DNA of 64,000 bases from contig PLNN01000019.1 in NCBI GenBank assembly GCA_003142795.1, forward strand, positions 51,991-115,990. Reading direction: 5' to 3'. The DNA is from Candidatus Omnitrophota bacterium. GTDB taxonomy: Bacteria > Omnitrophota > Gorgyraeia > 2-01-FULL-45-10. Under the pieces are notes generated by a model, which saw nothing but the letters and a program-made list of their open reading frames with translations, was not told the origin of the DNA and did not search any database. Positions 1 to 56,423 of the stretch are shown in pieces. Position 1 is the first letter of the stretch. Each line of letters starts with the position of its first letter. Made by a program: the position numbers and the translations under genes.

Positions 1-3000
1 CTTGCCGCATTCGCCGCTATCATCACAGTATGGCGGCAGCATCCATCGACAGTTTCTCGTATAGTTAAAGCCGCGATCGTTCCCGCAGTTTGCATCGGAG
101 CTTCTTATCTCTTCGGGGATCTTTACGCCGGCCTTTTCAAGAATTCCGCATGGAGTTTGAAAACCATGCTTGCCAGCACGATCATTGGCGGAGCGACTTT
201 AGCAGGCGGAAGCTACATGGAACAGACGGCAAGAGGCGTAAAGGTCGATCGGTCCGAAGTCTTTCGCTGGGCGATAGCAGGCTCCGCCCTCTTAGGGCTT
301 CTCGCTTATGGCGCATGGTTCCCGTTGTTGACTCATTTGACAAAAGATAACAATTTCCTGTTTGCGGCGCTGGACATGTGCGTCTTCGCGCCATTTGTTT
401 TCATTCCTCTCGAATTCCTTGCCAAGAAGTATTTAGTGTCACCAGGGGACACAACAAATACTTTTAAAAACACGCTCCAGACGTGGGCTTTTGTTTCCGT
501 ATTAAATGTCGTTTGGTTCGGTCCTATCTTATTTTTAGGGAGAGCCCTCTGGCCGGACAAGATCGTCCTGATCGATGCCAATGCAGCAGTAATTTGGGCA
601 GGGCCTCTCGTCTATTTCCTTGGGGTTTGGAAAAGGTTCGGCGGTATATCCGGCCTGGCGAAGAAAGTCTTTAAGCTCAAAAAAGAGGCACTGGAAAAAG
701 ATGCCCCACTAGTGATACTGGGAGGCGAGGAAGAGCTGGCTTCCGAACTGCGCGGTTTTGCCAGATATTCGATGGTCGAGCAGGACCAGACCATAAAGAC
801 CGTCGTGGCGCACGGATTTAATGCCGGGAATACAGGGCTCCTACAGGATGATATAGAGATTCTATGGCAGCACTCATGGTTTGTCCGGCTGGTCAACTGG
901 CTTGAGAAAAGGCATCCGTCGATTTATGAAATGATAAGAAAAACTTACAGATCCTTTGGTATAGAGCTCGTCAAGACCGTTCCAACGATGGGTGCGTTCA
1001 TGTACGGATTTGGCGCCGGCGCACATAGGAATGATTTTGAGAAGGTTTTGCTATATCGCTCGACGAAAGGTTCGCGCAGCGCGCTTGCCATTGTCGATGA
1101 GGCCGAAGACGTCTTAAGGCGAAGTAAGGGGAATTTCGATCAGGACGTCAAAATAATAGCGTTCTTTAAAGCGTTGAAAAGATATGCGCGTTTAGTAGAC
1201 GACCAGGCTGCTCGCCACGGCCTTGATCTGACAGGCGTTTGGGGAGATGCGGCCAAGAGGGCGCGGCCGGTGACCATTCAGAACATCCTGGCGCTCGGGA
1301 CTTTTCTTGAATCGGCAAAACCGGGCCGCATCAGCCTGCGTAAATATTACAGGGCCCTCAACAGGGTAAGCTCTATACTCGAATCCCCGGCTGTGCCCAT
1401 ACATACATCTTTATGGAGCCATAAAGAAGCAACGCCGGTGGGATACCTGAAAGAAGCCGAAGAGCTTAAAATGCCGGATGGGTCGATCGTCTTTACCGAT
1501 AAGATAGTAGGACAATGGAATCTTAAAACCGTTAAACATGGTCCACTAGTTAAGATAGATGTTGTAAATACGGGGACTGGTGAGAAAGCCGTTTTGCCAG
1601 TGGTGCCGGAGGCTTTGAGGGCTATAGAAAAAGCGGAAGAGCTCGTCATCGCTCCGGAAAATATTCTGACCGATCTTAGTATGTTCCTTTCGGTTAAAGA
1701 GATCGCGGACGCGCTCGCCAAAAGAAAGGAGGCAGGCAAACCCACCATACTTGTGCTGCCGGTTTCGACCAAAGACGGCAATCCCGGCCTGATCGATGAA
1801 GGCATAGACGCGGCCCTTCGGGCAGGAATGGGTTACGGCATATCTGATATCGCCACGCATGTGATCGTAAACGACATTGAGAATGAGACGGATGTTCTTA
1901 TCAAAATTACCGCAAAAGAGATGTTTGCCAGAGAAGGCATGGAACCCGTTACGATCAGTCCCTCTTTCGAAAAAGTATTACGGGATAACGGCACGACCGT
2001 TTTTAAGGGTCCCTTGGGCGAGATCATCAAAACGCCGAGCAAAAAACCCGGGCTTGGGTCCCTGGAGGACAATTACCAGATAGCGTCGAACAGGCTTGCA
2101 TTCGTCCTGAAGATGATCGAGATATCGCATAAGTATAAGACGGCGCCGCTGTGGATAAGCGATATAGAAGGGACGATCAAACCGTCCGGCCATACGGTAC
2201 TGCCCTCCGAAGAAACGGAAGAGATCGCCTCGTGCTTAAAAGAAAACGTACCGTTCGGTCTCCTCACAGAAGCAGCAGCGGGCGATGCGGAGGAATCGAC
2301 CGCAAATCGCGTCAAAGCCCGGCTCGAATCAGGCGGCGCGACCGGCAAAATGCGCCTTATGCCTATGCAGGCGGTCGCGGGTTTGAGATGTTTTGTTTAT
2401 GATCCGGGTAACGGAAGATACGAGTTCATAACGGGTTTCGATTTAAGAAAAGAGATAGGCGACGATAAGTTCAATCATCTAAAGCAAATATGCGTCGATC
2501 TGGTCGAAAAATTCGGACTCGTGGAGCGTAATAAAAGATTGGGGTTTGCTGGCGAAAATGACAGCGGCTTCTGGGGACCTTATTTCGATGACCGCATAGG
2601 GGGAGTTACTTTTTCCGTGATCGGCAAAGACGCCTTGCAGGGATGGATCAGTCGGTACGAGACCAAAGGCGGCAAGGAGCTTAACCGTGTCTTACTGAAA
2701 TATTTAAATGACCGATGCGCCAACGAAGGCATTCCCGTAAAGTGGACCCTTGGGAGCGAATTCCAGATCGACGGAACGCATGAAAAGACAGACAAGGGGG
2801 ATGGTTTAAAATCCATAAGCGAGTTGACCGGCATTCCGCTGGAAGCCATAATTTTCAGCGGAGATAACATAAGATGGTCGAAAGAGGGCGAGCCTGGCGA
2901 CGACACCAAGGCGGCGCAGAGGGCAGGGTTCAGCCTCAACATGGACGGCAGATTACTTGATGAGCCGGTTGCCGGCAAGACGGTCATTACCGCATCGGAA

Positions 3001-6000
3001 AGGGGCGGTAAACACGGCATCCTTCCATACCTCCGTTTGTATAGGGCTTTTTACGCGACATTGCCGGATAAATATAAAGATTTTGAGAAGCGGCTTCAAG
3101 ACGGTATCGCACGCGAAAAAGAGCACCAGAAAAGGATGAGCCCGGAATGGGCAAGAGAACAGCTTAAGCTCTTTGTTGCGCAAGGTACTATACAAGGTGT
3201 GCCGGGAAAAGAGATAGAGACACTGTTCGATTATGCCGGAATTTTGCTTGATACAAAGACCGGGAATGAAGATGACTTGCAACTGGTTTATAAAACATTG
3301 AAAATAATTTCCCTGCTTGATATTTCTCCCGAATTAAGGCGTTTGACTGAGCATAAGTTACGCGACTTCGCCAGGAATACGCGCGCCAAAGATTTCGGAT
3401 CGTATAGCGGTGCCTACCAAGAAGGGGCTCTCAACATCTCCGTTAATACACCGTCCAAAGGACCTGCCCCGGTAGAAGCGCTTTCTGCGCTGGGCGCTGG
3501 CGAACAGTCCGCAGCCATCCATACCGGACTGGGAGCGTTTAAAGGCGGGAAAGTGGGGCACGTAATTTTATTGGGAGAGAACGAGCTGGACGAAGAATTA
3601 TTCAGCAGTCAAATGGAAAACATTCTTAAAATAGAGACAGCCTTCGGCTGCAAGGCAAGGGTCTGTATAGTTGCCAGCTTTAGGAATCACAGGGCGGTAA
3701 TTGAGCTATTAAAACAGAGAAAATTTTTTGGCCTTGAATCTGATCAGATTGCAATAGAATTTCAGGGGATCTATCAGAGCATGGGCGTGAGGGGACAAGG
3801 CCCATATTATTATCTGGAGGGCGGAAAGCATCTGGCAGCACCGGGTGACTTAGATGCGATATTGACACCGGTCTTGAGCGGAACGTTTACGGAATGGTCG
3901 AACGCCAGTGTCGAAGATATTATCGTATTGTCTTCGGCAGCTAAAGCTCCTGCAAATCCGGAAGAAGATTTTCTGATCCTTGGCCGGCTTATTGACACAA
4001 AGGCCGATATGGTCGTCTCTGTTACCGATAGGACAAAAGAAGACATAGGCGCTTCTCCGTATTATGACGCAGACAATAAACGTATAGTGCTATTGGAAGA
4101 TTATGCCGTTGGGCAAAATGTCACAAGAAATTTGCAGAGCAGCTTTCGCAACGCGGTTTCATTGTCGTCCCTCTTTAAACATATGGGAGTCGATCCTTTA
4201 CAGGCTCATGGCTTAAACCAGGCAGAATTATCAGATAAAGTCCGTGCTTTTATGCATGGATTGCGAGATAAGCCTTATGTCGTTCGAAAGGCAGTAACGG
4301 AAGAAGCCGGCAAGATAAGGCAATACAAGGTTGACCAGTTCAAGCATCCTTTCGGCAATCTCACTTTTAAACTGAAGACGGAGTATGTATATACGCCATC
4401 TCATAAATTAGCTACCGTATCTTCTGTCAGGCTTCGCAGATTCGGGCTTGGTTCGGTGGCGCAGATTATTTTAGCAGCTCTTCTTGTATCAATAGTAGGG
4501 GGAGCCGTTTGGCGCGACGCGCAGCAGCGGCTTGCTGTCGCGCTGCCGTATGGCATAACGATAGCGATAGTGATAGGCGCAATGATCTCAGCAACAATAT
4601 TGATACGTTGGATCATGAGTAATGGGTTTATATATATAAATGTAGGCGGCCAGCATCCTTCTCTCCTCAAAATAGAAAAAAAGATATGGCGCTCCATTGA
4701 TCGCGAAGACCAGGAAGCATTAAAATCGATAGTGGGCGCTGACGAAGCTGCGATAAAAGAGCTTATAGACCGTCCTGACAGCAGGATAGCGGAGTTTAAG
4801 GAGGATCCTATATCGCTGGAAGGAAAACTCGAAGAAGGTTATTGTGATGGGAGGACTATATATCTTCTGCTGAAGAAACCGATAATAACAGATGGCAAAG
4901 AGATAACCAGGTTAAGATTCCAGGGGGTCAGGCCTAAAATAGGCGAGAACGGAAAGATCGCTAATTATTCTGGTTACAGAGAGCTTGTAGCCGGCGAAGA
5001 TGGCCTTCTCCGTGTCGATGAGCCTCCCGCAGCCCGCCCGGCCGGCGCAAAACTTTATGACGGGGCATCGATAGAGTTTGAGGTCATGGATAATAGGTCG
5101 ATCCCCACCGATGTCGCGGTAGGTCTTGGCAAATACACGGGCATCGATTTCCAGGGGCAAAAGGTGGGCTACATCATAGCGGGAATGGAAGAACCCGATG
5201 GCCGCCTTTATACTAAAAAAGATACGATCGGCAGCATGTCTTGTGAATCGTTCAAAGAGCCGTCGAAAAAATTGACGATACTATTTCGCAAAGACAGTTT
5301 TAGCAAAGAAGAGCAAAGACGGATAGGGCGTACACTTAAAGCTAAGTATGAAGAGGGTGCAGGGGGACTTGAAGAGTCCGGCCTGCCCTTTGTTATATTG
5401 AGGGTAAGTAAAACACGAAACGACAGAATTAAAATAAAGCAAAGATATTCCAGCCACCCGGCTCAAAGATCGTCATTTAGATCTATCAGGGACCTTGACG
5501 ACGAAAGCGATATTTACCGTCAGTTTGGAAGGCTCATACGAAGAGCCCATGATAAAGGGTATTATGACCTGTTCCCAATTGTTATGCATCGTGAATACAC
5601 AGGTCCTACTATTCCCGAAGAGCAGACGCCTTCTTATTATGCGAGGTCGCATGAAACAAAAGTCGGCTTACGGCAGATCCGCGAAAGATGGGAAGTGGTT
5701 TCCAGAAATTTTTCCACGCTTAAACGCCGGGGTAAGCGGAATTCCTCAGAGAAAAACGCGGCGGAGCGGTTTATCGATATAACCAGTGTATTATTTGATC
5801 TTACACAGACCAAGATCACGAATATAGAGACAACTTTCGGTAATGCGCTTTACGGTGATGATGCCCCTACTCACACAAGTGCAACATCCATGGATGTTTC
5901 CCGTCTCATAGAGTCGTTCCTGGAAGGTTATTTTTATGATATCGACCCGCGCGACAGGACTTTCAGCGATATGTATGAAACTTGTATTCAATTCGAGCGC

Positions 6001-24000: not shown

Positions 24001-27000
24001 GGCCGTTACGATAATATCACCAGGGCGGCTAAAGATGCTTTCAGGGCGCTTAATTCTTTGGGAAGATCGCCCGGCCAGAGAGGACTAGGCGCAGGCGAGA
24101 TACCGCTGCTTAAATTATTGGCGGACAAAGATGTAGCGGCAGGCTGGTACAGTGAAAAGACGGCTATCCGTTTTCAAACAGTCGTTGAGTCGATCCTGTT
24201 CGTTGCATGGCCCTTGATATCGCTTGCCGGTATGCCGATACTGCATCAGGCCGCCATAATATTGGGAAGCGGAGCCTTATTCGGGCTGCTTCACTGGAAT
24301 GGGCTCGTCAATTTCTTCATAAGGCTGTTGACGGGCAGGACGCTTAATCTTCCCCAGGCGCCGCCTCTTTTAAGCGTTATCGGCATAACATCACTGAATG
24401 TTTTAACATTGACCGCAGTCGCTTGCCTTTCATACATTATTCCTTCAGCCGTGAAAGACCCTGTATCGGCGGGTCTTGCGGCAGCCTTCATAACTGTCAC
24501 GGGATTTCTCCTTGCAACAGGAAAACATTATCTCGCCAATATAAAACGTCGCCAAACTCGTCCAGCCGGACTATATGACCCGCAGAAAGGATACAGGTTC
24601 GGGCAACAGGGCATTGAAGATATGGACCAGGTGAAGCTCGCTATCCAGTCTATCATGGACTTAACAAAACACGTCATAAGCAATATTTCTAAAACTCCCT
24701 ACGGAATAAAGAATAAAGATAAATTCAGGAAGTTGATATTATTGTTTTATCAGTCTTTCAATGCGGAACGAATTGCCTATAGTAGATTTGAAGAACGAAC
24801 TGAAGCGAACGGAAACGTCGCAACGATAAAAGTAACGCCTGATAAATATGACACTATAGTGGAAATATCAGACGGTTACAGCTATATGGCGGACTATTTA
24901 TTTAAAGCATTCTCGATATTAGAAGAGTTGCGCGCGCGCCCGGAGAATTTACCGGAAAGTCTTTTGCAGGATATTTACAATCTTGCGAGAGAAACAGAGG
25001 AGCTATTGTGGAAAATCGGAAAAGTATCGCTTAGTTTTAAGCGTATCGAGGACGATATAGCGCGATTCCGGGCCTGGGATCTGCTGGAGGCGAGTTCTGT
25101 GAGGGGTATGTTACGGCAGCCGTCTTTATTGATCGATCAGCCTCTCCGCTCTCTTGTGTACAATGCGCGCGCCAGAGACTATCTCGAACATGTCATTACC
25201 CAGGAGTTGAGGCCGGGAGGCTATACAGAACTCCTGGATATGCCCGCGGGCGAAGTCATTAAAATCGTTATGCTAGCCTTGAGCCACACTTCGTATGAGG
25301 CGCGCATCAGGGCGGCAGAAGGGGCTGAAGCGCTTGCTTTTATTGGCCGCGAAACCAACCATGTTATAAAAAGACGCTCGCTATCAAATGCTGTTATTGA
25401 TACAAGGATCGACATAAACGGGAAGAAGGAAGGCATCGTCAGTCTTTTATTGGCCGGGCTTAGAAATAGAGACACCCATCGTGCCAATGTTAAGACATTG
25501 GCGTATCTTTTGAAAGAACCAGACGATCTTTTAAACAGAAAAATATACAGTAGTATAGCAATAGCCAGCGCGCGAATGGCCGACATAGCGCAAGAGAAAG
25601 CGCCGGACCGTCGCGGAATGACGCTTGAAGTGGTTATTGCAGCGATTGCGATCCTGGCCATTCTTTTGCCATATGTCATTATACCGCTTGTAAGAGACGT
25701 CTACGATCTTGGTTTTAGTCTTGCACTTAAGAGCTGGTGGGAAACGGTCGGATTGATAGGATCGGTATCATTTATTTCAGGGGCCATCGCGACAACGTTT
25801 ATTTTAATTTTCCATACTATTACCATTTCACCGCTTTCTTTCTACGAGGGCCGTCGTGAAAGTCGTGCATCCGAAGACGGATTATTATTGGAAGCGCTGA
25901 TACCGGATGCTGGGTCGGAACGGATAAATTTCCGCCATGAATTAAAACATTATTTAAATAAAGGTAAGAAATTGCTCGGCGAAGGCGAGTATGCAGGCGC
26001 TATGGAATGTTTTGACAAAGGTATCTCAATATACGGCAGATGGCACAGGTCGGGAGCGGCTTCTACCAAGACTGCATCTTATGTGGGCGCGATGGAAGGT
26101 TTTATGCGCGACCTTGCTTCATATACGAAAACAACCATAGAGGAAATTGCCATGTTTGGGACGTTCCAGGATTGCGTGGCGGCATGGAAGATATGCGACG
26201 ATCGGATCAGCGGTCCTTTTTGGCAAATAAGTTGTCAGGATATTCACGAAAGCATTTCAAGACGTCTTTACACAATTGCGAAAAAAGAAGAAATTAAGGT
26301 AGTGGAAAACAAAATCAATTTTGATTTTGAAGATGTGATCTTTGATAATGATAAAGCGTTAGTTCTCAAATACAATGGGATAAATGTAGTGCATGACGAA
26401 AAGAGCGCGCAAAATAACGGAACCAGGGTATGGCTGGTCGGTTCCCACTATGGTTCCGCGCAAATTAGCATGCCGCTGGACACTTTTCTGGCCGACATAT
26501 CCCGCGGAAGATACGTGAAGCTTCTTCCTGACGATGAATTTCCGACGGGTATGCCGCAGATGCCTCAAGACAAATCCGAAATATCAAAGAGTGTCGTAAG
26601 GCTCATCGAGCGCAATGACGCCGCCGCTTTAAGGGTCCTGGGCGCCTGGCTGCAGAATGATGATGCCGTTTCGAGAGAAGCCATATTTCACGTGATCATG
26701 GGATTTGCCAATAAACCGGAGTATGGTGCGATCCATGAGCTGCTGATCAATGAAATTCTCAATAATGATAACATGCCATGGCTACGCCGGGTGCTTACTT
26801 CTAAAAATGATCCCCTGCGCAGTTGCGCGAAAAATCTCATATCGAGTCGCCCGATTTCGGATAACGTCACAGCTCTCTTGAGGGAACTGGAAGCGCCAAT
26901 GATACTCATAGGGATCCCGCGTCTTCACCTTACAGATAAGGGCGAAGCCGAGGCCGCCGAAAGATCCATCTTTGAGAATGCGGTAGAAACGGCGGGCAAA

Positions 27001-27915
27001 GAGATAGCGGCAAAAGCGGAGATCGTTTATTTTGAGGACAGCGGCGACGAAAAAGCCAATCTTGAATATGTTTCCCGTGAAGCAAGGCGGCGCGGGGCGG
27101 CAATGGCTATTCCCGTAAGGAGCGGCATAAAGGCAAGCAAGTTCGAAGAAGAATTAAAGAATGGATTTTTGACAGAGGCCACCTCGTCGCTTATAGAATG
27201 CAAACTCCTGACGATGACCGTCGATGAGCAGAGAGAAAGCATGAAAAGGCTCAGGCAGGTTTTACCTGAAATGCTCGCGGAAATAAATACGCTGAGCCTG
27301 TACAGCATGAATTTCAGGATGAGGGCCATCCATCGCGATTATGTGTCGGCTAACAGAAGTATCGCGGCGATAGCGGATCAACCCGAATTAGAGGGCGTCG
27401 GCGTAAGGGCCGTTGTCGTCCATTCCATCGAGGAGATCAAGTCTCAGGCTGAAGCAAATAACGGCAGGAAAAATTTCAGGATAGTTCTTATCCCAAGCGA
27501 TGACGAAAAGGATAAATGTGCCGATAAACCGGCATTATTAGAACGTGAAGACATAACGAAAGATATGCTAAGGCCCGAAGACCTGATGGTCATGGAAAGA
27601 GGAACGCCGCTGTCGAAGATAAGAGATGAGGTCGCTAGATCCTATGAGAATGAGAAGGGATCCAGGCCGAAGAGGATAGCCATAGCCGACAAGTCTAACG
27701 ACGATGGCATAAAGGCCGAAGTGCCGGATGACGTTTTGTTCCTTGAATACAATGAAGTAGCCGGCCCATGGGTCTACTATGCCCTCTGCGCGGTCATAAT
27801 GAATCCTGATGAGATCGTCAAGTGGAGAAAATGGCTAAAAGCGATAGAAAAGAACGATATCGAACGTTTCCGCAAAGCGATCGAACAGTTTAAGGTAGTG
27901 CTTATGAACGCATAA
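1..27915 (+). CDS. Giant polytopic membrane protein of at least 9,300 aa, incomplete at its 5' end. It is a mosaic of TM clusters, TPR and HEAT repeats, an HAD-IIB-like domain, a SAM-MTase-like domain and a sigma-70 r4-like HTH.
   Basis: Single uninterrupted ORF in frame +1 ending at TAA 27913-27915. The ORF track places the first ATG at 157, but the same frame has no stop back to nt 1 and translates to hydrophobic helix-like sequence (LAAFAAIITVW...), so the gene probably begins upstream of the window. Hydrophobic helix clusters lie at nt ~160-680, 4420-4625, 6880-7110, 10200-10740, 12280-12480, 13600-13810, 14215-14450, 22340-22720, 24180-24540 and 25620-25850. Confidence 0.8.
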   Translation, partial: LAAFAAIITVWRQHPSTVSRIVKAAIVPAVCIGASYLFGDLYAGLFKNSAWSLKTMLASTIIGGATLAGGSYMEQTARGVKVDRSEVFRWAIAGSALLGLLAYGAWFPLLTHLTKDNNFLFAALDMCVFAPFVFIPLEFLAKKYLVSPGDTTNTFKNTLQTWAFVSVLNVVWFGPILFLGRALWPDKIVLIDANAAVIWAGPLVYFLGVWKRFGGISGLAKKVFKLKKEALEKDAPLVILGGEEELASELRGFARYSMVEQDQTIKTVVAHGFNAGNTGLLQDDIEILWQHSWFVRLVNWLEKRHPSIYEMIRKTYRSFGIELVKTVPTMGAFMYGFGAGAHRNDFEKVLLYRSTKGSRSALAIVDEAEDVLRRSKGNFDQDVKIIAFFKALKRYARLVDDQAARHGLDLTGVWGDAAKRARPVTIQNILALGTFLESAKPGRISLRKYYRALNRVSSILESPAVPIHTSLWSHKEATPVGYLKEAEELKMPDGSIVFTDKIVGQWNLKTVKHGPLVKIDVVNTGTGEKAVLPVVPEALRAIEKAEELVIAPENILTDLSMFLSVKEIADALAKRKEAGKPTILVLPVSTKDGNPGLIDEGIDAALRAGMGYGISDIATHVIVNDIENETDVLIKITAKEMFAREGMEPVTISPSFEKVLRDNGTTVFKGPLGEIIKTPSKKPGLGSLEDNYQIASNRLAFVLKMIEISHKYKTAPLWISDIEGTIKPSGHTVLPSEETEEIASCLKENVPFGLLTEAAAGDAEESTANRVKARLESGGATGKMRLMPMQAVAGLRCFVYDPGNGRYEFITGFDLRKEIGDDKFNHLKQICVDLVEKFGLVERNKRLGFAGENDSGFWGPYFDDRIGGVTFSVIGKDALQGWISRYETKGGKELNRVLLKYLNDRCANEGIPVKWTLGSEFQIDGTHEKTDKGDGLKSISELTGIPLEAIIFSGDNIRWSKEGEPGDDTKAAQRAGFSLNMDGRLLDEPVAGKTVITASERGGKHGILPYLRLYRAFYATLPDKYKDFEKRLQDGIAREKEHQKRMSPEWAREQLKLFVAQGTIQGVPGKEIETLFDYAGILLDTKTGNEDDLQLVYKTLKIISLLDISPELRRLTEHKLRDFARNTRAKDFGSYSGAYQEGALNISVNTPSKGPAPVEALSALGAGEQSAAIHTGLGAFKGGKVGHVILLGENELDEELFSSQMENILKIETAFGCKARVCIVASFRNHRAVIELLKQRKFFGLESDQIAIEFQGIYQSMGVRGQGPYYYLEGGKHLAAPGDLDAILTPVLSGTFTEWSNASVEDIIVLSSAAKAPANPEEDFLILGRLIDTKADMVVSVTDRTKEDIGASPYYDADNKRIVLLEDYAVGQNVTRNLQSSFRNAVSLSSLFKHMGVDPLQAHGLNQAELSDKVRAFMHGLRDKPYVVRKAVTEEAGKIRQYKVDQFKHPFGNLTFKLKTEYVYTPSHKLATVSSVRLRRFGLGSVAQIILAALLVSIVGGAVWRDAQQRLAVALPYGITIAIVIGAMISATILIRWIMSNGFIYINVGGQHPSLLKIEKKIWRSIDREDQEALKSIVGADEAAIKELIDRPDSRIAEFKEDPISLEGKLEEGYCDGRTIYLLLKKPIITDGKEITRLRFQGVRPKIGENGKIANYSGYRELVAGEDGLLRVDEPPAARPAGAKLYDGASIEFEVMDNRSIPTDVAVGLGKYTGIDFQGQKVGYIIAGMEEPDGRLYTKKDTIGSMSCESFKEPSKKLTILFRKDSFSKEEQRRIGRTLKAKYEEGAGGLEESGLPFVILRVSKTRNDRIKIKQRYSSHPAQRSSFRSIRDLDDESDIYRQFGRLIRRAHDKGYYDLFPIVMHREYTGPTIPEEQTPSYYARSHETKVGLRQIRERWEVVSRNFSTLKRRGKRNSSEKNAAERFIDITSVLFDLTQTKITNIETTFGNALYGDDAPTHTSATSMDVSRLIESFLEGYFYDIDPRDRTFSDMYETCIQFERDPNRLLMPVNKLYNAIGVALWEEESEEFDKYRGLFMPNLIAAEKNSRQSEGGAARWFKPLIMMGGLAALSAFAITAFAILIPHASAIHTQAVTAAMPWWSAILGMFFLGSIGDWPYDPGRSRGEDPHAFALHHYNQGVRLCKAGQLIKAVECFDKAIEAVPNHYAMHYNRGTALLELKKYDEAIKDFERVLELNPDFSMAYYNRGEAYLAKEEYREAIADFTKAIEAGLKNGILYFNRGVAKLIIYKDESDLSYKDDGIRDLETAAQLEHLLIDRIRSIAENYNLDIKLPPPSSGPRFMSFLLPFIIVAYFASMGAVWPDMHLSFAGILAAMQSWFATVGASGALPWIVGVAATIAVLITTFIAYKNKSKPLVSSHQPFFFVRLTGLKYLIAIPQILLMAFVLGCTPPDSGSQKNIENRAEEAQIAKFEEEEAEHVDEIAKDNKDLQQRIAAFASIAMSKFSVHGFKYETINDRERLKSQEEGTRYLLVSARGIDSMYPADDKRVKLEVLMKKFIDTADGMVKNSFGTGDVLNECDAIINRANNLYFIPNGYLLDFFGINKFGQVITFSYKIVDKQPYTCNGYDIGVCYIVELTDYFSQRRAAYATSGKKLIIFKDSLNKPMVLPKNAGGRHQDAINKELAKLQARDSIEDAVDASAIHEVTHRANKGFKVGSGWLAGSMSHEDEEKSARFSAYFNGNGQAVDIAYSLRNIAYNATLDQDDPDGECAFIDALVVQGIRKGLFDKSDFTYDTRIGLNGLMNSLRKETTKIDEMNKAILSVAKAFNKGFDADEKGFRAKLKALVPEAAKPLLPSSYVIPEIKRKARPAPVEPAPVKTTEEKPSAESAEPSKEQPEAKAPVKQAGPESVVPIVKPAAPKPVSFLVPVADDATGQLRVVFNIVNKAKQANPALANNGKIETQYGAGKWLTKVKLSDGKAAWIYIEQKGDGKAAIFTGKKPKWVEIYLIGKDKNGLCLFDPDAKQCTVISARGDLIETTVGEGETIEDAVKEALHMIHNHNTPFYWPALAIAPQTTLPDLGSAAIHSYNEFNTVLQVSYRSYGITMPAEWDRIMPALYDTISSHTGFLSLNNREQVTMIRELYDFLQRKRYEKASIKLMSRDHTVLAFFGRSSGKEGDIFETRYANVVDVYGGHLELFKPGEKGMTPMEAKEKFLDRAAELAAAGKFVTLMVWSHGAKTGFEVSGMMGISDAEMAGALSGSRIKLSRKTIDLTRVNGIFNCCYATDFTLNMLSELKRQTDEMGSALVFPGSIVASTSRNREALSTALWDSIGEYHVRTKGKDSNNPSLPLGAILTFVDANLYTQGRKPEFDENNKIKGWTVLKPEILQDPAVIIPLNDKDREELRRILRLKDSMPAPNFIQIGLAEPARNLKQEVIDSVPGLVSAAVAGYKSQGGAWFPGTFYRKFIAPLETPVSFGLAFAVAQAFAMRMGWHDMARPLWLMTALVPIIFWAGHIPRSIYDYYKGNKITALKADVNILTIAAAAGTAAWLGATMTFPALNNIAPLLLYFGIIFPLTILHIYINWKDNVAGHDKRPFAQFTLGTLLTVMLYTAFFFSGYTTFSRYFITNPNAPILEQLEVIERRAAIHNKVKGRTSEPVFGIEPIDESIMRASLYERLAREDAENRKEAVAGLPWYQSHEDLARDVIYVTLEDGSKMVYLGIKANGINPDPKRPEMPIKCIRFHETYQSVIDRYKPLLAQPDAGTRLEAVIALGMLKDPSLVSDFMSVIEKDTDSRVRGKAIASLGYMGYGAKPAIEQIVHIFKNSKEDRFVRMIAADALSGIVKNLPDSNEDKTAVINILIDVIKDTLYGRLQGDDKQIGNAASFALIKIKDPSTVHKIIDDIRKEKSEHDKIQQPKDEPSSRSELGSDAYMNFAAIFGTLLLGTIGKWPFAWFTSDGAGLSQKANKYFEEAMRCCEHGKYEESLEPFNRTIELAPYYYAAYRNLGNAYFMLDRYDEAIDNYKKAIERKPDDNNSYFNMAQAYAFKDEYSEAVKCITKAIEYHTDEDEPEYGDLYYKRGILNFYAGNIEDAEHDLEMAVKLKPALISSVISFVHEHKDKLDVKLPPASPPPGQGPRFMSLFLPFIISIGIFASFGAVWRDAHLSFGSILEAIQSWLATMDTPAVLGWAGSISTGLALMTAIIAAPEERFNLSELISSYKKDVKIRGYTASEKYSAIIARLIKAAATEEIIEALDDIFVSGVVKFHMGFYTTAGILESRMNLVTRVLADELKIRIAGSSAVQSQEFAALYKKIKDIRDAEKDARLGFARYALKVEGKGSGVRKRNVPETHRRFDEYEKFLHISSLVEDIKNRRDLLIAKGVLGKDEAMNMLDIGCGEGVFLEQLSEKLTEAGIKANLTGTALRRSEGWAEIEAAHSNIKFMEGMAEAMDIGMGTIHYAVSVYMLHYSEDKLKVIEEVYRVLSPYGIARIHSNEESTQKGTPRWEVLFGRMDLAGSYKLRVEDAYEYKGTDKDYEGPALVIEKDDPREMPCDLLFPYTLDSEGFYHPIRIAQVRRAVPWLKTVAMILLAPLALLVLEGAGWRDAHMNLGGILEYMQSWLVTITTAPGALPGLTTIFTMAGFAFGSFIISKRDISLFFNKSSKKQKNQLLNGKIQKVWPGKLSGDKINKALDSAIGHLPDNLQEIVILKYYGDGDSGPLTDYDIADRYKVTVAAIRDSLRRAHKRIKTDLLEQNAVKDILPSYLDPKKLLEKRFFARSHTDRGGFALLDIAAIIPLAGLIVALSGSFIIGMALGSPSVFLRDYIHFASGAFTLRSPEWLMNIGVGGLPWLKYIAASISLSGFLMARSRKRDLRQAQSMQASKPQPVRPRERKYLRLLSDFEKKRARVMKLAEAQPPAPCRIVFDDKNIGKDKITSIEETVRAQLPRLQEMARTGYDISFGASSQDILRTIYIERSQRPEGEIELTRDRAFLALHLPVENPDIAARAMNDLMEKMGKYLKTPNVGVTTIVPVVHSDSASFGNIDYLITKSLRDAKNEGRRAEIIVECGVIQPYSCYESDLEEFKTTDAYKRMNKKPKNLSNILFDPGFKDARAAFLNYVHDEELDMQDETSRMIYSGFDSNIKYIYPRESFSAPLYMRLFKAQAVPIHEDIWDDTTLLFLRLDYNSFDRLKPKIPVTFNELTRFEDSYLQTQLDFIKIAHIRDARLERQLAALPLDPDVKDRLFILGGKHARGIKRYSPVASLFQFQDESAHWRQLKDVYPFMHARATAESVLSDAIHDWIDEKFPDGIHDPTPGSDEMQSFIAMNIPDDDNWRHMIDIDFIEFLLGLSKERADKRPLTEKNQVRVYGILKTIVGDMGSGDLKKWLIDYCNTAPGSQSAATDLINQRLRERLSSDERAFLLGDPDSRITGVAWMGKKNFDSRSIYSASNPVRKSTAMVGGVILRSDLGGESHPGKGSVPDEDRLSESVLENWMSVIKDGNKLGEKAIPVVLKGGAASGDEKRDFYTCLHFLTFNVYVVPAEELNGRSFWYSDATNSVYIADRAFTQAELAKIIGELQYIQDRINAGRSDDIENRAFNWTWTNAEPPQLEKPVSSEGQNDTANKAIGESDDNKQINSGGEQNNGRRARREKKVETPAQKAASFIPPIKSAVSRALAGSILPNMTALIDPKLRTAPTILFDASSYKNPVLSIIGIVGSPKLIPIIPDPRVLKTLDNSSRYTAQFSMDEINFRLKERHPETALLNDEWTDLAVTQIQAYPSQKKREWLTRQFSVLRAIVERSTGAFANDMAKYPAETKIVRDAANKLEMSYRTVTKKIFELQRKLKAKSNDGWITSADVAENMDSLKEVMAAWPRGIFVLEKNKSLLSGDMRRMDDWILELQNTLLPSLKNYDIFNLLSDKAVAQMPAGILNEVYYDAFRSVWLEELRDIGSSIAESGDEELDGYAWECCRLASYVFALEWESVFTDLTAEKAVPAGKSSFVSNTPIGGAGILLLDGEMQPREFIPGAGTMDAGDLALRHHPFMLKEQYRPGDRIVIVCPSTTGFPNFEQIHSYLEDMFVLRRMLPDSPQVYLGVATISGEMRLYGMAGSREGGDHWAELINSLYDELPKYRKLKKTLKDSFALHADRKIYDRYIGDDTEKDKKKRPSLRIGNSSTVISKEMEDILAKKDEGEIEKIENNPIYMIMKDVVEQLPLNIRKSLIEGYGREEADRIMNAVMNRFEKQFRDLKAFSKTIYSVNDLDKFFWEISSKVSRVNMFIAECRGSDLLDEYITRKGFLEVVEIGGLTVSTNPSPIQGLAPPPTQGETARQSVLSRVMRSHAQSFAPDKVLRAGKSIIDQLRNDARQSLDGKLLPNSVSIRPEVMNMGETLIETDNLSVDRPLFNLCFMHDFLGISTQPNFVVIPDPKSIAPYLQRYKTVLDKYELTTRLEKANPAAKKLYNIYRDEKPAPDVDPELLWKWTRDLCINAKEVLEERYGNIYNIEHDIEALKDKNPKIAGEIEDAKNTVVGLVKKEFKVSRMAIEAFDRLCRFKKDDKIPASEVKREIEQLIAYLDTWPRLQFGLRDTLNDLSQGEDYVEFEILENIISEFGKALSQHRFQIFAEHSLHSEAMELIYYDALRLALLKLCTDPSEGILPRISAWADHKQNIPVSMRTDVYRLFDETMGLVQYEVITDAIKEKVLVGKSDDRSRAHPPIGGLGVLFLRGAGEDNGQLQVRRYLPGAYLSSPGKTQYNPQYVKRWYQKGDSIILMYPSYSEYLNAESIRNFAEDCLNLRKDVPGLSEILVGIMQPNGAVAVYRPRAQLDDAAALYQLTFKTAEILSPYLSQFRVYVEDETFIWFSRAFTEFQSRSKNMPFNSGDGNRLLKLNPDRSVLFNMFRQKANDRLRSLGAILVKGLERCGYDHKTAVSMVERVKTRLNGEFRKIKTFDVAIDDGQSVFLNDKGLREEMETIVYKAIMAVGEEMASYLIEDQELFEPIKIRGLTDTDEAARKREAAKAQRLKREELRRKIAAIRKTNFTDPQAVRQAFEDSKMLFDNVAAAGEIKGALAEHLHTVIGHTLAEKFVRRTLDDSQNMWEAFLGGEAVEADAFFNLGERQALAELVMNAESGSEVNGFKAGIDTARQQFPIMDSINGWAELAYYVLEQDEIGRDDINTAVEMIKPIEESIKGLSGEDSQRAEDRFRQILNSFKDRLTPGILSELEEMFPDGNGAEDIEWERLIRLLPGLELACRVFSEAGLYSSQAERDKFEKGKLKVQAAVEEQGVYYEIARLNNEEKDTGKTSKEKSAKVLRLNIGNSLVFYNRYSGRPIKITLNRIEKGRLYFDVDTPFGLVAIGGAELSRTAFNHNGEWRSTSIRERAADHWKAVDGRLRFITLCGIDLFSRERDYGVENRLWVFPYKVLYGLIEDDTIIVESADTKKDNKRDEDKVEFKNVDAGICLRIDRVLPDGTANVALEDPLNQCDYNKVEVIEPAGQKPVANSAVNWLNLGLALLGFVPLIISQFFGFDLYNFIQTAAVISSIYVTSFLIHELNHYLDLYGYSWKNLKSFVTDRPALEVNAEGISVSGARGTPGVLVSAALGYVSYLFISLIPQYAIPALIINIALISKSDLTNIMKSDVFKELIIKIRGSEFYNALYEFMLEIYSFVAEIFSVFNDIFQTLVSIIKDLLASFEILFEISFKSAEEMEREREQRKDEARQLLHFLSDNRYSLGQFSAQQVVRRVLDKGKTLRSFILPDGVSRGVSLNAVINAYIKIDGNQETALSLSQKNAVSDNMFVRQEAVDSLYNFLPYATDLETFEDICDTPVKTVEGGASTAINLFLKNAASPLEAHQDLTNTIIAKIIFGNCSDLLIKKLVKCLGSADKDERHNAANLLILLTKRDDADIVSAIVGEIPNIRKEYFVYNDAEIAYGAYSLLAGLARETENEAILTAIIIETRHIIRYLSLDDEAICDRVRSAVYQLLLTGRKKIMDAVAREIPARIIGYMKNIEAPHACYAAHELMNLFITSGYPVIDVAIEKNRADIRKILIINKELNAGRYDNITRAAKDAFRALNSLGRSPGQRGLGAGEIPLLKLLADKDVAAGWYSEKTAIRFQTVVESILFVAWPLISLAGMPILHQAAIILGSGALFGLLHWNGLVNFFIRLLTGRTLNLPQAPPLLSVIGITSLNVLTLTAVACLSYIIPSAVKDPVSAGLAAAFITVTGFLLATGKHYLANIKRRQTRPAGLYDPQKGYRFGQQGIEDMDQVKLAIQSIMDLTKHVISNISKTPYGIKNKDKFRKLILLFYQSFNAERIAYSRFEERTEANGNVATIKVTPDKYDTIVEISDGYSYMADYLFKAFSILEELRARPENLPESLLQDIYNLARETEELLWKIGKVSLSFKRIEDDIARFRAWDLLEASSVRGMLRQPSLLIDQPLRSLVYNARARDYLEHVITQELRPGGYTELLDMPAGEVIKIVMLALSHTSYEARIRAAEGAEALAFIGRETNHVIKRRSLSNAVIDTRIDINGKKEGIVSLLLAGLRNRDTHRANVKTLAYLLKEPDDLLNRKIYSSIAIASARMADIAQEKAPDRRGMTLEVVIAAIAILAILLPYVIIPLVRDVYDLGFSLALKSWWETVGLIGSVSFISGAIATTFILIFHTITISPLSFYEGRRESRASEDGLLLEALIPDAGSERINFRHELKHYLNKGKKLLGEGEYAGAMECFDKGISIYGRWHRSGAASTKTASYVGAMEGFMRDLASYTKTTIEEIAMFGTFQDCVAAWKICDDRISGPFWQISCQDIHESISRRLYTIAKKEEIKVVENKINFDFEDVIFDNDKALVLKYNGINVVHDEKSAQNNGTRVWLVGSHYGSAQISMPLDTFLADISRGRYVKLLPDDEFPTGMPQMPQDKSEISKSVVRLIERNDAAALRVLGAWLQNDDAVSREAIFHVIMGFANKPEYGAIHELLINEILNNDNMPWLRRVLTSKNDPLRSCAKNLISSRPISDNVTALLRELEAPMILIGIPRLHLTDKGEAEAAERSIFENAVETAGKEIAAKAEIVYFEDSGDEKANLEYVSREARRRGAAMAIPVRSGIKASKFEEELKNGFLTEATSSLIECKLLTMTVDEQRESMKRLRQVLPEMLAEINTLSLYSMNFRMRAIHRDYVSANRSIAAIADQPELEGVGVRAVVVHSIEEIKSQAEANNGRKNFRIVLIPSDDEKDKCADKPALLEREDITKDMLRPEDLMVMERGTPLSKIRDEVARSYENEKGSRPKRIAIADKSNDDGIKAEVPDDVLFLEYNEVAGPWVYYALCAVIMNPDEIVKWRKWLKAIEKNDIERFRKAIEQFKVVLMNA
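2149..2950 (+). other. HAD-IIB-like phosphatase domain (phosphomannomutase, MPGP or SPP-like) embedded in ORF1
   Basis: Motif-I-like LWISDIEGTI sits at ~2149-2178 as a DxEGT variant of DxDGT. GVTFSVIGKDALQGW resembles the eukaryotic-type PMM FSIGGQ block. Motif III KGDGLKSISELTGIPLEAIIFSGDNI lies at ~2791-2878. Confidence 0.5.
4420..4625 (+). repeat. Intragenic TM-hairpin module, copy A (partial, with GGAVWRDAQQ)
   Basis: Protein-level repeat (SVAQIILAALLVSIVGGAVWRDAQQRL...) with DNA-level similarity (ggagccgtttggcgcgacgcgca) to the copies at 6856, 12226 and 13577. Confidence 0.6.
6376..6740 (+). other. TPR repeat block 1 in ORF1
   Basis: Repeated 34-aa units with the W/LG/Y/A/F/A/P signature: AVECFDKAIEAVPNHYAMHYNRGTALLELKKYDEAIKDFERVLELNPDFSMAYYNRGEAYLAKEEYREAIADFTKAIE. 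Confidence 0.8.
6856..7110 (+). repeat. Intragenic module copy B: KLPPPSSGPRFMS followed by a TM hairpin (GAVWPDMHLSF...QSWFAT)
   Basis: About 80-85% nucleotide identity over ~150 nt to 12265-12415 (for example gggcccgagatttatgtcg and ggagccgt.tggc...catctgagttt). Follows TPR block 1. Confidence 0.75.
11146..11410 (+). other. HEAT/PBS-lyase-type repeats in ORF1
   Basis: DAGTRLEAVIALGMLKDP...DSRVRGKAIASLGYMG...DRFVRMIAADALSGI shows a repeated ~30-aa helical unit with R/A/L/G spacing typical of HEAT. Confidence 0.6.
11755..12180 (+). other. TPR repeat block 2 in ORF1
   Basis: AYRNLGNAYFMLDRYDEAIDNYKKAIERKPDDNNSYFNMAQAYAFKDEYSEAVKCITKAIEY... reads as canonical TPR units. Confidence 0.8.
12226..12486 (+). 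repeat. Intragenic module copy C: KLPPASPPPGQGPRFMS followed by a TM hairpin (GAVWRDAHLSF...QSWLAT)
   Basis: Paralogous to 6856-7110 at both DNA and protein level. It again lies directly after a TPR block. Confidence 0.75.
13009..13340 (+). other. Class I SAM-dependent methyltransferase-like domain embedded in ORF1
   Basis: Motif I MLDIGCGEGVFLEQL (hh-D/E-hGxGxG) is present. The downstream acidic and hydrophobic motifs (EAMDIGMGTIHYAVSVYMLHY and VLSPYGIARI) match the Rossmann MTase post-I, II and III spacing. Confidence 0.65.
13577..13815 (+). repeat. Intragenic TM-hairpin module, copy D (EGAGWRDAHMNLGGILEYMQSWLVT)
   Basis: DNA similarity (ctggcgcgacgcgca...atattagaa.acatgcagagctgg) to copies B and C. 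Confidence 0.7.
13930..14105 (+). other. Sigma-70 region-4-like helix-turn-helix segment embedded in ORF1
   Basis: LPDNLQEIVILKYYGDGDSGPLTDYDIADRYKVTVAAIRDSLRRAHKRIK fits the ECF/sigma-70 r4 pattern Lp.r.R.V..L.y.eg.s..EIA..lg...gTVksrl.RAr..L. Confidence 0.5.
22340..22720 (+). other. TM cluster carrying an HExxH motif (SFLIHELNHYLD) in ORF1
   Basis: Three hydrophobic helices surround a HELNH motif at nt ~22483-22497. A second HExxH (AIHEVTHRA) lies at 7975-7989 in a soluble region. Confidence 0.35.
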
Positions 27916-27957
27916 TATTTATGCCTGCAGGTTCGCCAAGTGTCCTGCGGCATGAAA

Positions 27958-27988
27958 CCGTGCCTGCGCCTCCCAGGTGCAGGCACGG
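27958..27988 (+). terminator. Candidate stem-loop terminator after ORF1
   Basis: Perfect 10-bp GC-rich stem ccgtgcctgc / gcaggcacgg with an 11-nt loop, 43 nt after the TAA. It is followed by A/T-rich sequence with no clean U-tract. A second, imperfect hairpin lies at 27921-27953. Confidence 0.4.
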
Positions 27989-28004
27989 CCTATATAAATA
28001 AGTT

Positions 28005-28146
28005 AAATAACAAAAAGTTATATAATATTATTGACAATGTTATATTAATATTATACCCTATATAAAAGAATAAAAAGTTATAAATAGTATAGAATTTGCT
28101 TAAACATTCACAAAAATATGAAATATGAAGGGCTGAAAAACCAGAA
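28005..28146 (+). promoter_or_regulatory. Extremely AT-rich promoter region for ORF2
   Basis: GC is about 20% here. Elements present are TTGACA at 28031-28036, several TATAAT-like hexamers, an 11-bp direct repeat aaaaagttata at 28011-28021 and 28072-28082, and a 10-codon uORF (28118-28150) whose TGA overlaps the ORF2 ATG. Confidence 0.45.
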
Positions 28147-37842: not shown

Positions 37843-37957
37843 CTTATTAAGCTATAAAAAAGTTAGATTTTATGGATTGACAAGATTTTCAATTATGGTA
37901 TAGTTTATATACTATAATTAAAGCGATAAAAAGTCATTAATGATAGTTATCCACAAA

Positions 37958-37983
37958 GTAGTGGACGTTTAAACGTCCACTAC
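37958..37983 (+). promoter_or_regulatory. Perfect 26-bp palindrome (gtagtggacgtttaaacgtccactac) 18 nt upstream of the ORF3 start, a candidate operator or RNA hairpin
   Basis: gtagtggacgttt is the exact reverse complement of aaacgtccactac and the site is centred on tttaaa. It lies between the AT-rich promoter-like region (TTGACA 37877-37882, TATAAT 37913-37918) and the RBS aaggagag at 37988-37995. There is no downstream U-tract. Confidence 0.55.
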
Positions 37984-38000
37984 AACTAAGGAGAGTATAA

Positions 38001-50000: not shown

Positions 50001-50177
50001 ACGATGTCTTTCGAGGAATTGCAGAAGCTGGGAAGCGATTTCCTCGATGCGAATGGCATGCCTAGCCTGTTAGCGAAGATAGAACTGGTAAAACGGCTAT
50101 TGATAACGCTGCCTGCTAAACCATTCAATGCCGACGACGATCTTCACAGGCGCCGCGAAGTTCTCTGGAGCGTGTAA
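38001..50177 (+). CDS. Giant secreted multidomain protein (4058 aa): N-terminal conserved domain, NTP-transferase-like motif, LbH, phosphohexomutase domain, transaldolase domain and cupin-like segments
   Basis: Uninterrupted ORF with a strong RBS (aaggagag, 6-nt spacer, ATG 38001). The N-terminal signal-peptide-like segment is [22 protein letters not shown]. The embedded enzyme domains are listed as separate features. Confidence 0.85.
   Translation: [4058 protein letters not shown]
38225..39515 (+). other. Conserved N-terminal domain, paralogue of ORF2 28415-29700
   Basis: See the ORF2 domain feature. Protein identity across the domain is about 30-35% by eye. Confidence 0.35.
41987..42031 (+). 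other. Degenerate NTP-transferase glycine-rich motif ([15 protein letters not shown]) in ORF3
   Basis: Aligns with ORF2 IIAGGKGTRFSPGG but has GKAER in place of GxGTR. Confidence 0.3.
43200..43440 (+). other. Hexapeptide-repeat (LbH) segment in ORF3
   Basis: [70 protein letters not shown]. Confidence 0.4.
43700..45520 (+). other. Complete alpha-D-phosphohexomutase (PGM/PMM superfamily) domain embedded in ORF3
   Basis: It has the N-terminal [10 protein letters not shown] motif, the catalytic-serine loop [11 protein letters not shown] (equivalent to TASHNP), the metal loop TTDGDSDRP (DGDxDR) and the phosphate-binding loop [15 protein letters not shown] (RxSGTEPxxRxY-like). It is collinear with the free-standing paralogue at 58964-60622. 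Confidence 0.8.
45700..46560 (+). other. Complete transaldolase-family domain embedded in ORF3
   Basis: It is collinear with E. coli TalB. [13 protein letters not shown] aligns with [28 protein letters not shown] aligns with [57 protein letters not shown] aligns with [40 protein letters not shown], with the Schiff-base Lys conserved. [11 protein letters not shown] aligns with ISPFVGRILDW. Confidence 0.8.
48900..49450 (+). other. Cupin-like segments in ORF3, possibly mannose-6-phosphate isomerase type II-like
   Basis: [57 protein letters not shown] and [34 protein letters not shown] have the G(X)5HXH...E...G...P.G..H...N shape. No strict motif was verified. Confidence 0.3.
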
Positions 50178-50196
50178 TCTATACGAGGTTATAACT

Positions 50197-53529: not shown

Positions 53530-53538
53530 AATAAGATT

Positions 53539-53580
53539 TTGATTTTTTAGTATGATTTTAGTATAATAATCATACTTTTT
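53539..53580 (+). promoter_or_regulatory. Near-consensus sigma-70 promoter (TTGATT-17-TATAAT) overlapping an inverted repeat and T-tract (agtatgatt/aatcatact, then tttt)
   Basis: The -35 TTGATT is at 53539-53544 and the -10 TATAAT at 53562-53567, with an exact 17-bp spacer. The -10 sits in the loop of a 9-bp AT-rich inverted repeat (53549-53576) followed by TTTT. This could act as a promoter for 53619, a weak terminator for 52501, or both. Confidence 0.45.
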
Positions 53581-53618
53581 GTTAGATTAGAACCAAAATT
53601 TTAGAAAGGGAAACAGCA

Positions 53619-55468: not shown

Positions 55469-55499
55469 GATATAGGGACCGGTAGCCAGAGGATAACGG

Positions 55500-56411: not shown

Positions 56412-56423
56412 TAAGCCCCTTCA

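Follow-up and report, generated by a model that had tools for sequence, protein, structure and literature searches.

A very long gene from a probable Omnitrophota genome encodes a membrane-anchored mosaic protein of 10,511 residues

The 64,000-nucleotide (nt) stretch of contig PLNN01000019.1 analysed here (positions 51,991 to 115,990; hereafter the window) opens inside a protein-coding gene, G1, which occupies nt 1 to 27915 on the forward strand. G1 is one real, very long gene of an uncultivated bacterium, encoding a membrane-anchored mosaic of 10,511 amino acids (aa), and it is an ordinary, sequence-unique representative of a documented, functionally unexplained class of proteins. Our overall reading, which we hold to be probable, is of a single 10,511-aa Omnitrophota membrane mosaic of a known large-protein kind, with a cytoplasm-facing array of domains and a role in glycan processing proposed for it. 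The megaproteins of Omnitrophota count among the largest that have been predicted anywhere in biology, and for none of them has a function been demonstrated. With thousands of such proteins catalogued, G1 adds little to the size headline; its assets are that it is compact (10.5 kilo-amino acids, kaa), fully resolved at its 3' end, mostly non-repetitive and set in an interpretable neighbourhood, in which two exported-looking giants with apparently intact mannose-phosphate- and pentose-phosphate-type enzymes are followed by a mannan/mannoside gene set. Its size also makes recombinant expression of sub-blocks realistic.

An uninterrupted reading frame of 9,304 codons

The window holds the 3' 9,304 codons of G1, whose frame is open at the 5' window edge. 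No stop codon occurs in frame +1 before the TAA at 27913-27915, leaving 9,304 sense codons counted from nt 1, whereas each of the other five frames carries 243-638 stops across nt 1-27915 and stays open for at most 501 nt. The probability of 9,304 stop-free codons, computed from base composition, is about 1e-230, which rules out a chance open reading frame (ORF). An alternative genetic code is ruled out as well, since TAA, TAG and TGA each terminate neighbouring genes, and the standard code therefore applies. The codon-usage score, for which ten genes of ordinary size from the 3' end of the window served as reference, is positive for frame +1 and negative for the other two forward-strand frames in 19 of 19 windows of 1.5 kb. 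The initial annotation, made from the letters and the translated ORFs, had described a single frame without interruption and a uniform, coding-like composition, and both parts of that description stand.

The gene begins outside the window. An exact look-up of the product of the neighbouring gene G2 found G1 called as a 10,511-aa product in European Nucleotide Archive (ENA) record ERZ28656667, on the 162,510-bp scaffold WOOD18-1_SAMN07125087_METAG-scaffold_48. The prefix WOOD18-1 may point to a data set of Woodcroft et al. (2018) from a thawing-permafrost mire. By arithmetic from the look-up coordinates, nt 1 of the window is position 52,024 of this scaffold, the called start of G1 lies ~3.6 kb upstream and ~1,207 N-terminal residues fall outside the window, the gene as a whole being 31.5 kb long. 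The initial annotation had suspected an upstream start and a still larger protein, as this call bears out; its alternative of a true start at nt 157 finds no support in a gene called from ~3.6 kb further upstream. Residues of G1 are numbered here from nt 1 of the window, and the domain searches cover the visible 9,304 aa, the upstream 1,207 aa lying outside.

An artefact of assembly or sequencing would have fused ordinary genes through collapsed frameshifts, missed stops or a chimeric join. Three points would favour such an error: the scaffold was assembled from short metagenomic reads, the comparison with a second assembly begins only past the first 18 kb of the window, and a related locus, L003, switches frame inside a conserved module. 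The zero stops of frame +1, the uniformity of its frame-specific codon usage and the recurrence of the same gene call on the 162.5-kb scaffold speak against it, as does the agreement of assemblies: an independent Logan assembly, from run SRR7151659, matches the window with 100% identity over 24504-47842, and across the compared stretch 18147-47842 the ENA scaffold shows a single difference, a non-disruptive missense single-nucleotide polymorphism (C/T at 21224, Ser7075Leu). This one polymorphism indicates that the window comes from another assembly or a strain variant of the same population. Long-read complete genomes of the phylum, moreover, show such ORFs to be real, and short-read assembly breaks them and does not create them (bioRxiv 10.64898/2026.06.07.730766). 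The assembly comparison covers these two intervals, and the 5' 18 kb are supported by long scaffolds only; two more long contigs carrying the same neighbouring proteins were reported by the look-up. We regard an artefact as very improbable.

A repeat-built origin can also be set aside. Tandem Repeats Finder returned no tandem repeats in window 1-52500, and comparison of the G1 protein with itself brought out no more than a handful of old duplications, at 20-40% identity, the remainder being mostly unique sequence. A repeat adhesin is thereby ruled out, in keeping with the earlier view that G1 is neither a low-complexity adhesin nor a repeat artefact. Neither tRNA genes nor Rfam families were found in the window.

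A domain mosaic with old internal duplications

G1 is tiled by many distinct domain families, none of which dominates in copy number, and a hydropathy scan counts ~30 hydrophobic helices in ~11 clusters, where at least seven clusters of transmembrane (TM) helices had been noticed at first sight. The class-I S-adenosylmethionine (SAM)-dependent methyltransferase at 13003-13338 (aa 4335-4446) scores above the Pfam cut-offs, through the families Methyltransf_25/11/31, and its motif I, LDIGCGEG, retains an intact GxGxG. HEAT repeats lie at 11131-11385 (aa 3711-3795; HEAT_2, E=2e-10) and TPR blocks at 6388-6810 (aa 2130-2270) and 11785-12201 (aa 3929-4067), so that the Rossmann methyltransferase, the HEAT repeats and the two TPR blocks of the initial annotation are all recovered. 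That reading overlooked a CofD/YvcK-like domain at 1483-2004 (aa 495-668), which matches the C-terminal half of the PF01933 profile above the Pfam cut-off (E=5e-10), along with two long downstream genes and the fact that the size of G1 is typical of Omnitrophota.

Two of its other assignments are weak. The proposed HAD-IIB domain corresponds to a block at 2143-2970 (aa ~715-990) with sub-threshold matches (Hydrolase_3, 18.0 bits against a cut-off of 20.9, E=0.0026; TIGR00099, Cof-type, E=0.01) and none above cut-off, and its motif I reads D-I-E-G-T as against the DxDGT nucleophile motif. The sigma-70 region-4-like helix-turn-helix (HTH) at 13936-14097 (aa 4646-4699) draws 14 sigma-factor models that converge on aa 4632-4707, all of them as sub-threshold region matches (Sigma70_r4, 16.2 bits against 24.1, E=0.008; TIGR02937, 22.7 bits against 42.9, E=6e-5). 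This HTH is placed in a ~130-aa loop between two membrane segments. A possible UDP-sugar pyrophosphorylase-like stretch at 3841-4128 (aa ~1281-1376) is suggested by two independent weak matches to one family (Pfam UDPGP, E=0.11; PDB 8c0b, E=0.06).

Apart from that one weak UDPGP match, PDB sequence searches returned TPR matches only in the first half of G1 and none in the second half or in S4, a block of ~1,000 aa at 7219-10260 (aa 2407-3420) to which neither a family nor a structure could be matched. Beyond aa ~4830 and up to its last residue, G1 gave no match above cut-off in Pfam or PDB sequence searches. Pfam scans of the visible G1 likewise gave no glycoside hydrolase, lytic transglycosylase, lectin, dockerin or adhesin-repeat domain. 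S4 follows directly upon a single helix (aa 2390-2406) that ends in a lipobox-like FVLGC and precedes a cluster of ~5 hydrophobic helices at 10261-10710 (aa 3421-3570). It contains a HEVTH motif at aa 2659 and an SHG...NCC His/Cys pair near aa 3189/3236 that is reminiscent of clan CD peptidases; a further HELKH motif is present in G1, and a CPBP/Rce1-like stretch, very weak at E=0.28, sits inside a TM cluster at 24172-24336 (aa 8058-8112). We do not claim HEVTH, the His/Cys pair or the CPBP-like stretch as proteases, these being motif-level leads without profile support.

G1 has evidently grown through old internal duplications, its internal similarity comprising a TM-TPR-hairpin module, a two-helix hairpin in five copies and a duplicated module of ~690 aa. 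The TM-TPR-hairpin module, which includes the first TPR block, occurs at aa 2056-2383 and aa 3889-4180, with a degenerate copy near aa 8580-8705. The five hairpins, which we term staples, follow one plan of basic flank, TM helix, conserved W-R-D...Q-S-W loop, TM helix and basic flank; they are found at 4423-4629 (A, aa 1475-1543), 6868-7113 (B, aa 2290-2371), 12250-12501 (C, aa 4084-4167), 13570-13830 (D, aa 4524-4610) and 25627-25836 (E, aa 8543-8612, followed by a degenerate TPR).

The ~690-aa module is present at 16720-18870 (copy 1, aa 5574-6290) and 18853-20910 (copy 2, aa 6285-6970; 26% identity to copy 1). When 1.84 billion cluster representatives were searched exhaustively with a profile of the module, a family of 32 proteins of 177-7,288 aa emerged (P0002-P0033), mostly 1.3-7.3 kaa long and several of them multi-copy, with a maximum of five or six copies per protein; the module was absent from the 81 Omnitrophota loci that we fetched. 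A composition rich in Ala, Pro and Arg makes several carriers look high-GC, and P0025 and P0030 begin with the N-terminal domain that also heads the neighbouring genes G2 and G3. A small conserved domain at 16240-16680 (aa ~5414-5560) precedes the duplicated module in G1 and in six other long proteins too. One carrier, P0003 (5,734 aa), is collinear with G1 over aa 5425-7439, a span that includes a common block at 21013-22317 (aa 7005-7439; 25% identity).

In an AlphaFold2 model of copy 1, built on a nine-sequence alignment (pLDDT 74.6, pTM 0.74), long bundles of helices surround an alpha/beta core (aa 5914-6066). This core matches the stretch of ~160 residues that is best conserved, and its consensus reads GGxGVLFLDxxGxPRRFVPGGGA...PGDRIVLxYPSxTGxPNxEQL...LPGxPEVxLGTxTxxGxVRxYxP. 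Against JAB/MPN structures the core gave modest scores, mixed with generic helical-bundle matches, and Foldseek gave none at E<=0.001. The JAMM motif (ExnHxHx7Sx2D) is absent, a 50-instance alignment reading ...VLLYPSxTGxPNxEQL... with no conserved His pair. Domains of this fold that lack the JAMM site are known, for example the Jab1/MPN domain of Prp8, yet the G1 module has no sequence similarity to MPN proteins and its core is embedded in long helical bundles unseen in them. The module defines a rare, unannotated family, with a core that, in the model, is weakly MPN/JAB-like.

Directly after the block in common with P0003 comes a membrane module at 22318-22740 (aa 7440-7580) that carries an HExxH motif (HELNH, aa 7495-7499) followed by N-x7-D. 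The module is kept in P0003, where the Glu is lost, and in a giant ORF of another locus, L011, as HELGH. There is no Pfam match to it, and a two-sequence AlphaFold2 model was unusable (pLDDT 41.8); by motif only, the module could be called S2P/M50-like. Together with the staples, the internal lipoprotein-like signal and the MPN-like duplicated module, it gives rise to hypotheses on how such a chain is inserted into the membrane and on whether it is cut.

Kinship with known systems, topology and possible role

Proteins of more than 10,000 aa have been termed 'large' and those of at least 30,000 aa 'giant', and Omnitrophota is the phylum in which they occur most often (West-Roberts et al., bioRxiv 10.1101/2023.11.21.568195). 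In this phylum Nielsen & Lui catalogued 5,761 proteins that reach or exceed 10,000 aa, of which 80% are singletons at 30% identity, and found at least one in 93.8% of complete Omnitrophota genomes; these proteins have a mean of 22 TM helices, count PF08241, HAD and phosphoglucomutase/phosphomannomutase (PGM/PMM) among their commonest domains and include a 'multi-enzyme metabolic cluster' class (bioRxiv 10.64898/2026.06.07.730766). The statement of the initial annotation that genes of this size are very rare in prokaryotes is therefore right overall and overstated within this phylum, in which proteins of at least 10,000 aa are ordinary.

The first likeness is to this multi-enzyme class (class 1 of Nielsen & Lui), which G1 fits by its sequence features. 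The defining features of the class are found in it: a length of 10,511 aa, an Omnitrophota context and many Pfam families, among them methyltransferase, HAD-like, HEAT and TPR domains, with PGM/PMM in the neighbouring G3. Its ~30 hydrophobic helices compare with the reported mean of 22, and it is a sequence singleton without nucleotide tandem repeats and with glycoside-hydrolase flanks. It differs in lying near the bottom of the size range, in having fewer recognisable enzymes, about half of it being unannotated, and in that no starch-synthase/GT1, histidine-kinase or receiver domains were detected in the visible part.

A second likeness is to the Archaeovorins, which combine HEAT, TPR, glycosyltransferase, methyltransferase and sugar-phosphate enzyme domains, PGM/PMM included, with many TM helices and SecA_DEAD, and whose loci have type II secretion and type IV pilus genes upstream and binding-protein-dependent transporters and glycoside hydrolases downstream (bioRxiv 10.1101/2023.11.21.568195). 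Like these proteins, including the giant of Velamenicoccus archaeovorus, G1 has HEAT, TPR, a SAM methyltransferase and numerous TM helices, sugar-phosphate enzymes in its gene cluster, and binding-protein-dependent transporters and glycoside hydrolases downstream. At 10,511 aa, however, it is in the 'large' and not the 'giant' tier, and in its visible 9,304 aa Pfam found no divergent SecA_DEAD/SecA preprotein-binding domain (thresholds E<=0.01 for the whole chain and E<=0.5-1 for the scanned tiles). Glycosyltransferase, glycoside hydrolase, NUDIX and GGDEF domains were likewise not found there; of the Archaeovorin set of glycosyltransferase, methyltransferase, glycoside hydrolase, peptidase and NUDIX domains, G1 shows only the methyltransferase, with peptidase leads at motif level. 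G1 is Archaeovorin-like in content and not a member: we do not file it there because its size is smaller and SecA_DEAD, glycosyltransferase, glycoside hydrolase and NUDIX domains are missing.

Two more distant systems share less. Repeat-built giant adhesins, the RTX type and the Dockerin/TSP3-type Omnitrophota giants are alike in size and envelope association, but G1 is without DNA tandem repeats and without Ig-like, cadherin, TSP3, dockerin or RTX repeats. Non-ribosomal peptide and polyketide megasynthases are likewise multi-domain enzyme mosaics on one very long chain; in contrast, G1 is TM-rich and its domains are not arranged in iterated catalytic modules. A megasynthase of either kind is ruled out, as Pfam scans of G1 gave no condensation, adenylation, ketosynthase, acyltransferase or carrier domains.

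We suggest the following working for G1. The five staples would each return the chain to the side from which it came, and this side is taken to be the cytoplasm because basic residues stand on both outer flanks of the hairpins (positive-inside rule). Most cofactor-dependent blocks would then lie on the cytoplasmic face as a membrane-tethered array of enzymes and scaffolds, an arrangement that fits since the catalytic blocks use cytoplasmic cofactors (SAM, nucleotide sugars and sugar phosphates). S4 could be exported through the extra helix that ends in FVLGC, and the TPR, HEAT and MPN-like modules may act as docking surfaces. G1 could cooperate with the signal-peptide-bearing products of G2 and G3 (phosphatase, phosphomannomutase, transaldolase and cupin) and with the genes for mannan/mannoside uptake, so that glycans from a host cell, a prey cell or the environment would be processed by G1-G3 and the mannan genes together. 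In this proposal the locus looks like the glycan-processing system of a host-dependent bacterium.

Several points weigh against this account, besides the reliance of the 5' 18 kb on long scaffolds, the comparison between assemblies starting at 18147. We infer both the function and the topology of G1 from its sequence, and ~5,000 aa, about half of the protein, have no family assignment. Two weak hydrophobic segments, aa 2092-2108 and aa 3885-3901, set the side on which the TPR and methyltransferase blocks lie, and a hydropathy scan alone cannot fix the topological parity of G1. TM predictions for such proteins have been called unreliable, and those published place most domains outside the cell (bioRxiv 10.1101/2023.11.21.568195). 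A signal peptide, C39/S8 peptidases and SecA-like domains are reported in relatives and would sit in the 1,207 aa of G1 beyond the window. The assignment of the window to Omnitrophota is itself indirect, coming from homology of neighbouring genes and not from marker phylogeny.

The most serious competitor is the hypothesis of West-Roberts et al. of a surface apparatus for predation or attachment, most of whose soluble blocks would lie outside the cytoplasmic membrane, there to attach to the envelope of a host or prey cell and break it down, with the TM helices as anchors only. The DeepTMHMM/TMHMM predictions for relatives, which put most domains outside (bioRxiv 10.1101/2023.11.21.568195), would agree with it, as would the glycoside hydrolases and sugar importers that flank this and other giant-gene loci, the signal-peptide-like starts of G2 and G3, and the lipobox-like signal ahead of S4. 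It is difficult to reconcile with a SAM methyltransferase and with CofD/YvcK-, HAD-, UDPGP- and sigma-r4-like domains, which need cytoplasmic cofactors or partners, with the lack in visible G1 of any of the hydrolytic, binding or adhesin domains sought, or with the basic outer flanks of the staples, which by the positive-inside rule keep the adjoining blocks inside. We consider a surface apparatus rather unlikely, with about one chance in four of being correct, and prefer the cytoplasm-facing array.

A different use of the same chain would be as a self-processing polyprotein, inserted in the membrane once, after which proteases of its own would divide it into many separate membrane-anchored proteins, the giant ORF being a delivery format. 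The HExxH membrane module, which is kept with its N-x7-D in two other giant proteins, would supply one protease; the weak CPBP/Rce1-like stretch, HEVTH, the clan-CD-like His/Cys pair and HELKH could supply others, and the internal lipobox-like signal would suit such a scheme. At locus L003 the equivalent of G1 consists of separate ORFs of 714, 591 and 1,222 aa, and cleavage by N-terminal C39/S8 peptidases was raised also by West-Roberts et al. (bioRxiv 10.1101/2023.11.21.568195). Yet none of the protease leads reaches a Pfam, NCBIfam or PDB threshold, the Glu of HExxH is lost in P0003, the AlphaFold2 model of the HExxH module is unusable, and the split of L003 could be a frameshift error. A polyprotein is improbable in our estimation. 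Slightly less probable still is an extended form, in which a polyprotein set in the membrane by staples is cut by its own proteases (the HExxH/N-x7-D module, the CPBP-like segment and the motif-level zincin and clan-CD sites of S4) into a defined set of anchored enzymes and scaffolds on both membrane faces, and also carries a new MPN-like docking family devoid of a metal site; if true, it would be a bacterial counterpart to the way viruses express polyproteins, and the docking module would be shared by long proteins inside and outside Omnitrophota.

Relatives and neighbouring genes

G1 appears close to a sequence orphan, as far as the searches, a weak negative, allow. In an index of 5.8 billion proteins, G1 aa 1-1480 gave one partial match, P0001, via aa 91-217, and aa 4830-7447 and aa 7400-9304 gave no match; this negative is weak, since very long proteins are perhaps under-represented in the index, which never returned G1 itself. 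A scan of a genome collection with G1 aa 1-1000 gave no match, and a metagenome scan gave only the contig of P0001. The matching region is a conserved multi-TM membrane module at 271-651 (53% identity). P0001 (1,202 aa; JGI contig Ga0315294_10003286, locus L003) is encoded directly upstream of a G3-like gene with 52% identity, at a locus where the G1 equivalent is much shorter and its upstream ORFs are HEAT-rich. Over 3730-4379 of L003 the frame switches exactly at the equivalent of G1 aa 90/91, inside the conserved membrane module, and the 591- and 1,222-aa ORFs overlap by ~20-80 nt; the switch may reflect an indel introduced in sequencing, a genuine split or a programmed frameshift. The C-terminal domain of G1, at 26896-27912 (aa 8966-9304), is conserved in other Omnitrophota loci: in L005 and L022, and over a shorter length in L033, ORFs that precede a G3-like gene end in a match to its last ~220-340 aa. 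Genes of the G1 type thus seem, from these comparisons, to share their ends and their position, with a highly variable middle.

G1 to G4 form a run of consecutive long genes on the same strand. G2 (28147-37842) encodes 3,231 aa with a signal-peptide-like N-terminus and an ARMT1-like damage-control phosphatase domain. G3 (38001-50177) encodes 4,058 aa, also with a signal-peptide-like N-terminus, and contains PGM/PMM domains I-II, a transaldolase/FSA domain and cupins. Its catalytic motifs are intact, namely the TGSHIP serine loop and DGDSDR metal loop of PGM/PMM and the IKIPAT context of the transaldolase Schiff-base Lys. The enzyme fusion spans window 43800-49500 (aa ~1958-3805), and the cupins are weakly mannose-6-phosphate-isomerase-like. 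The G3 enzymes would catalyse successive steps for mannose-1-phosphate, the expected product of the nearby GH130 phosphorylase; G3 looks exported despite such enzymes, and the same localisation puzzle is met in the literature. G4 (50128-52446; 772 aa) overlaps the end of G3 by 50 nt in a different frame; it has no family match and a relative in Omnitrophota locus L033.

The starts of G2 and G3 (28147-29790 and 38001-39650) share an N-terminal domain of ~480 aa at 34% identity, behind the signal-peptide-like segment, with the motifs IHIQDAH ... LITGGFHT and a weak Tiki/ChaN-like hint (Cofac_haem_bdg, E=0.048). A scan of one genome per GTDB species confirmed more than 264 relatives, the best at 68-69% identity. 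Nearly all of the 80 that were fetched are labelled Candidatus Omnitrophota/Omnitrophica; ~20 are third-party annotation metagenome-assembled genomes labelled 'uncultured Planctomycetia' or 'uncultured bacterium', labels that we take as unreliable. The domain usually heads genes of 1.4-3.9 kaa (loci L003-L083) and looks like a phylum-wide signature. At most fetched loci of sufficient length, the G3-like gene (~1.4-3.9 kaa) is preceded by an ORF of at least 3.2 kaa that is open to the flank edge, and at several the G3-like gene comes immediately after a G2-like C-terminus. Very long genes in tandem are, on this comparison of sequences, a conserved trait of this type of Omnitrophota locus.

The genes past G4 are of ordinary size and lie on the forward strand at 52501-63157: two GFO/IDH/MocA oxidoreductases, a xylose-isomerase-like TIM barrel, two ATP-binding cassette (ABC) permeases, a GH130 mannoside phosphorylase, an MFS_2 transporter, a stand-alone PGM/PMM and a mannanase of family GH113 that also bears an F5/8 type C domain. 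The two permeases (BPD_transp_1), MFS_2, GH130 and GH113 fall within 55500-63157. By their family assignments these genes make up a compact set for the predicted uptake and degradation of beta-mannan and mannosides, and a response regulator follows them (region 52501-63841). The G1-G2 spacer (27916-28146) is AT-rich, with a GC-rich hairpin just past the G1 stop, and the G2-G3 spacer (37843-38000) contains a near-consensus sigma-70-like site at 37877-37904, with TTGACA, a 16-nt spacer bearing TG, and TATAGT. Going by this consensus match, each giant gene may have a separate promoter.

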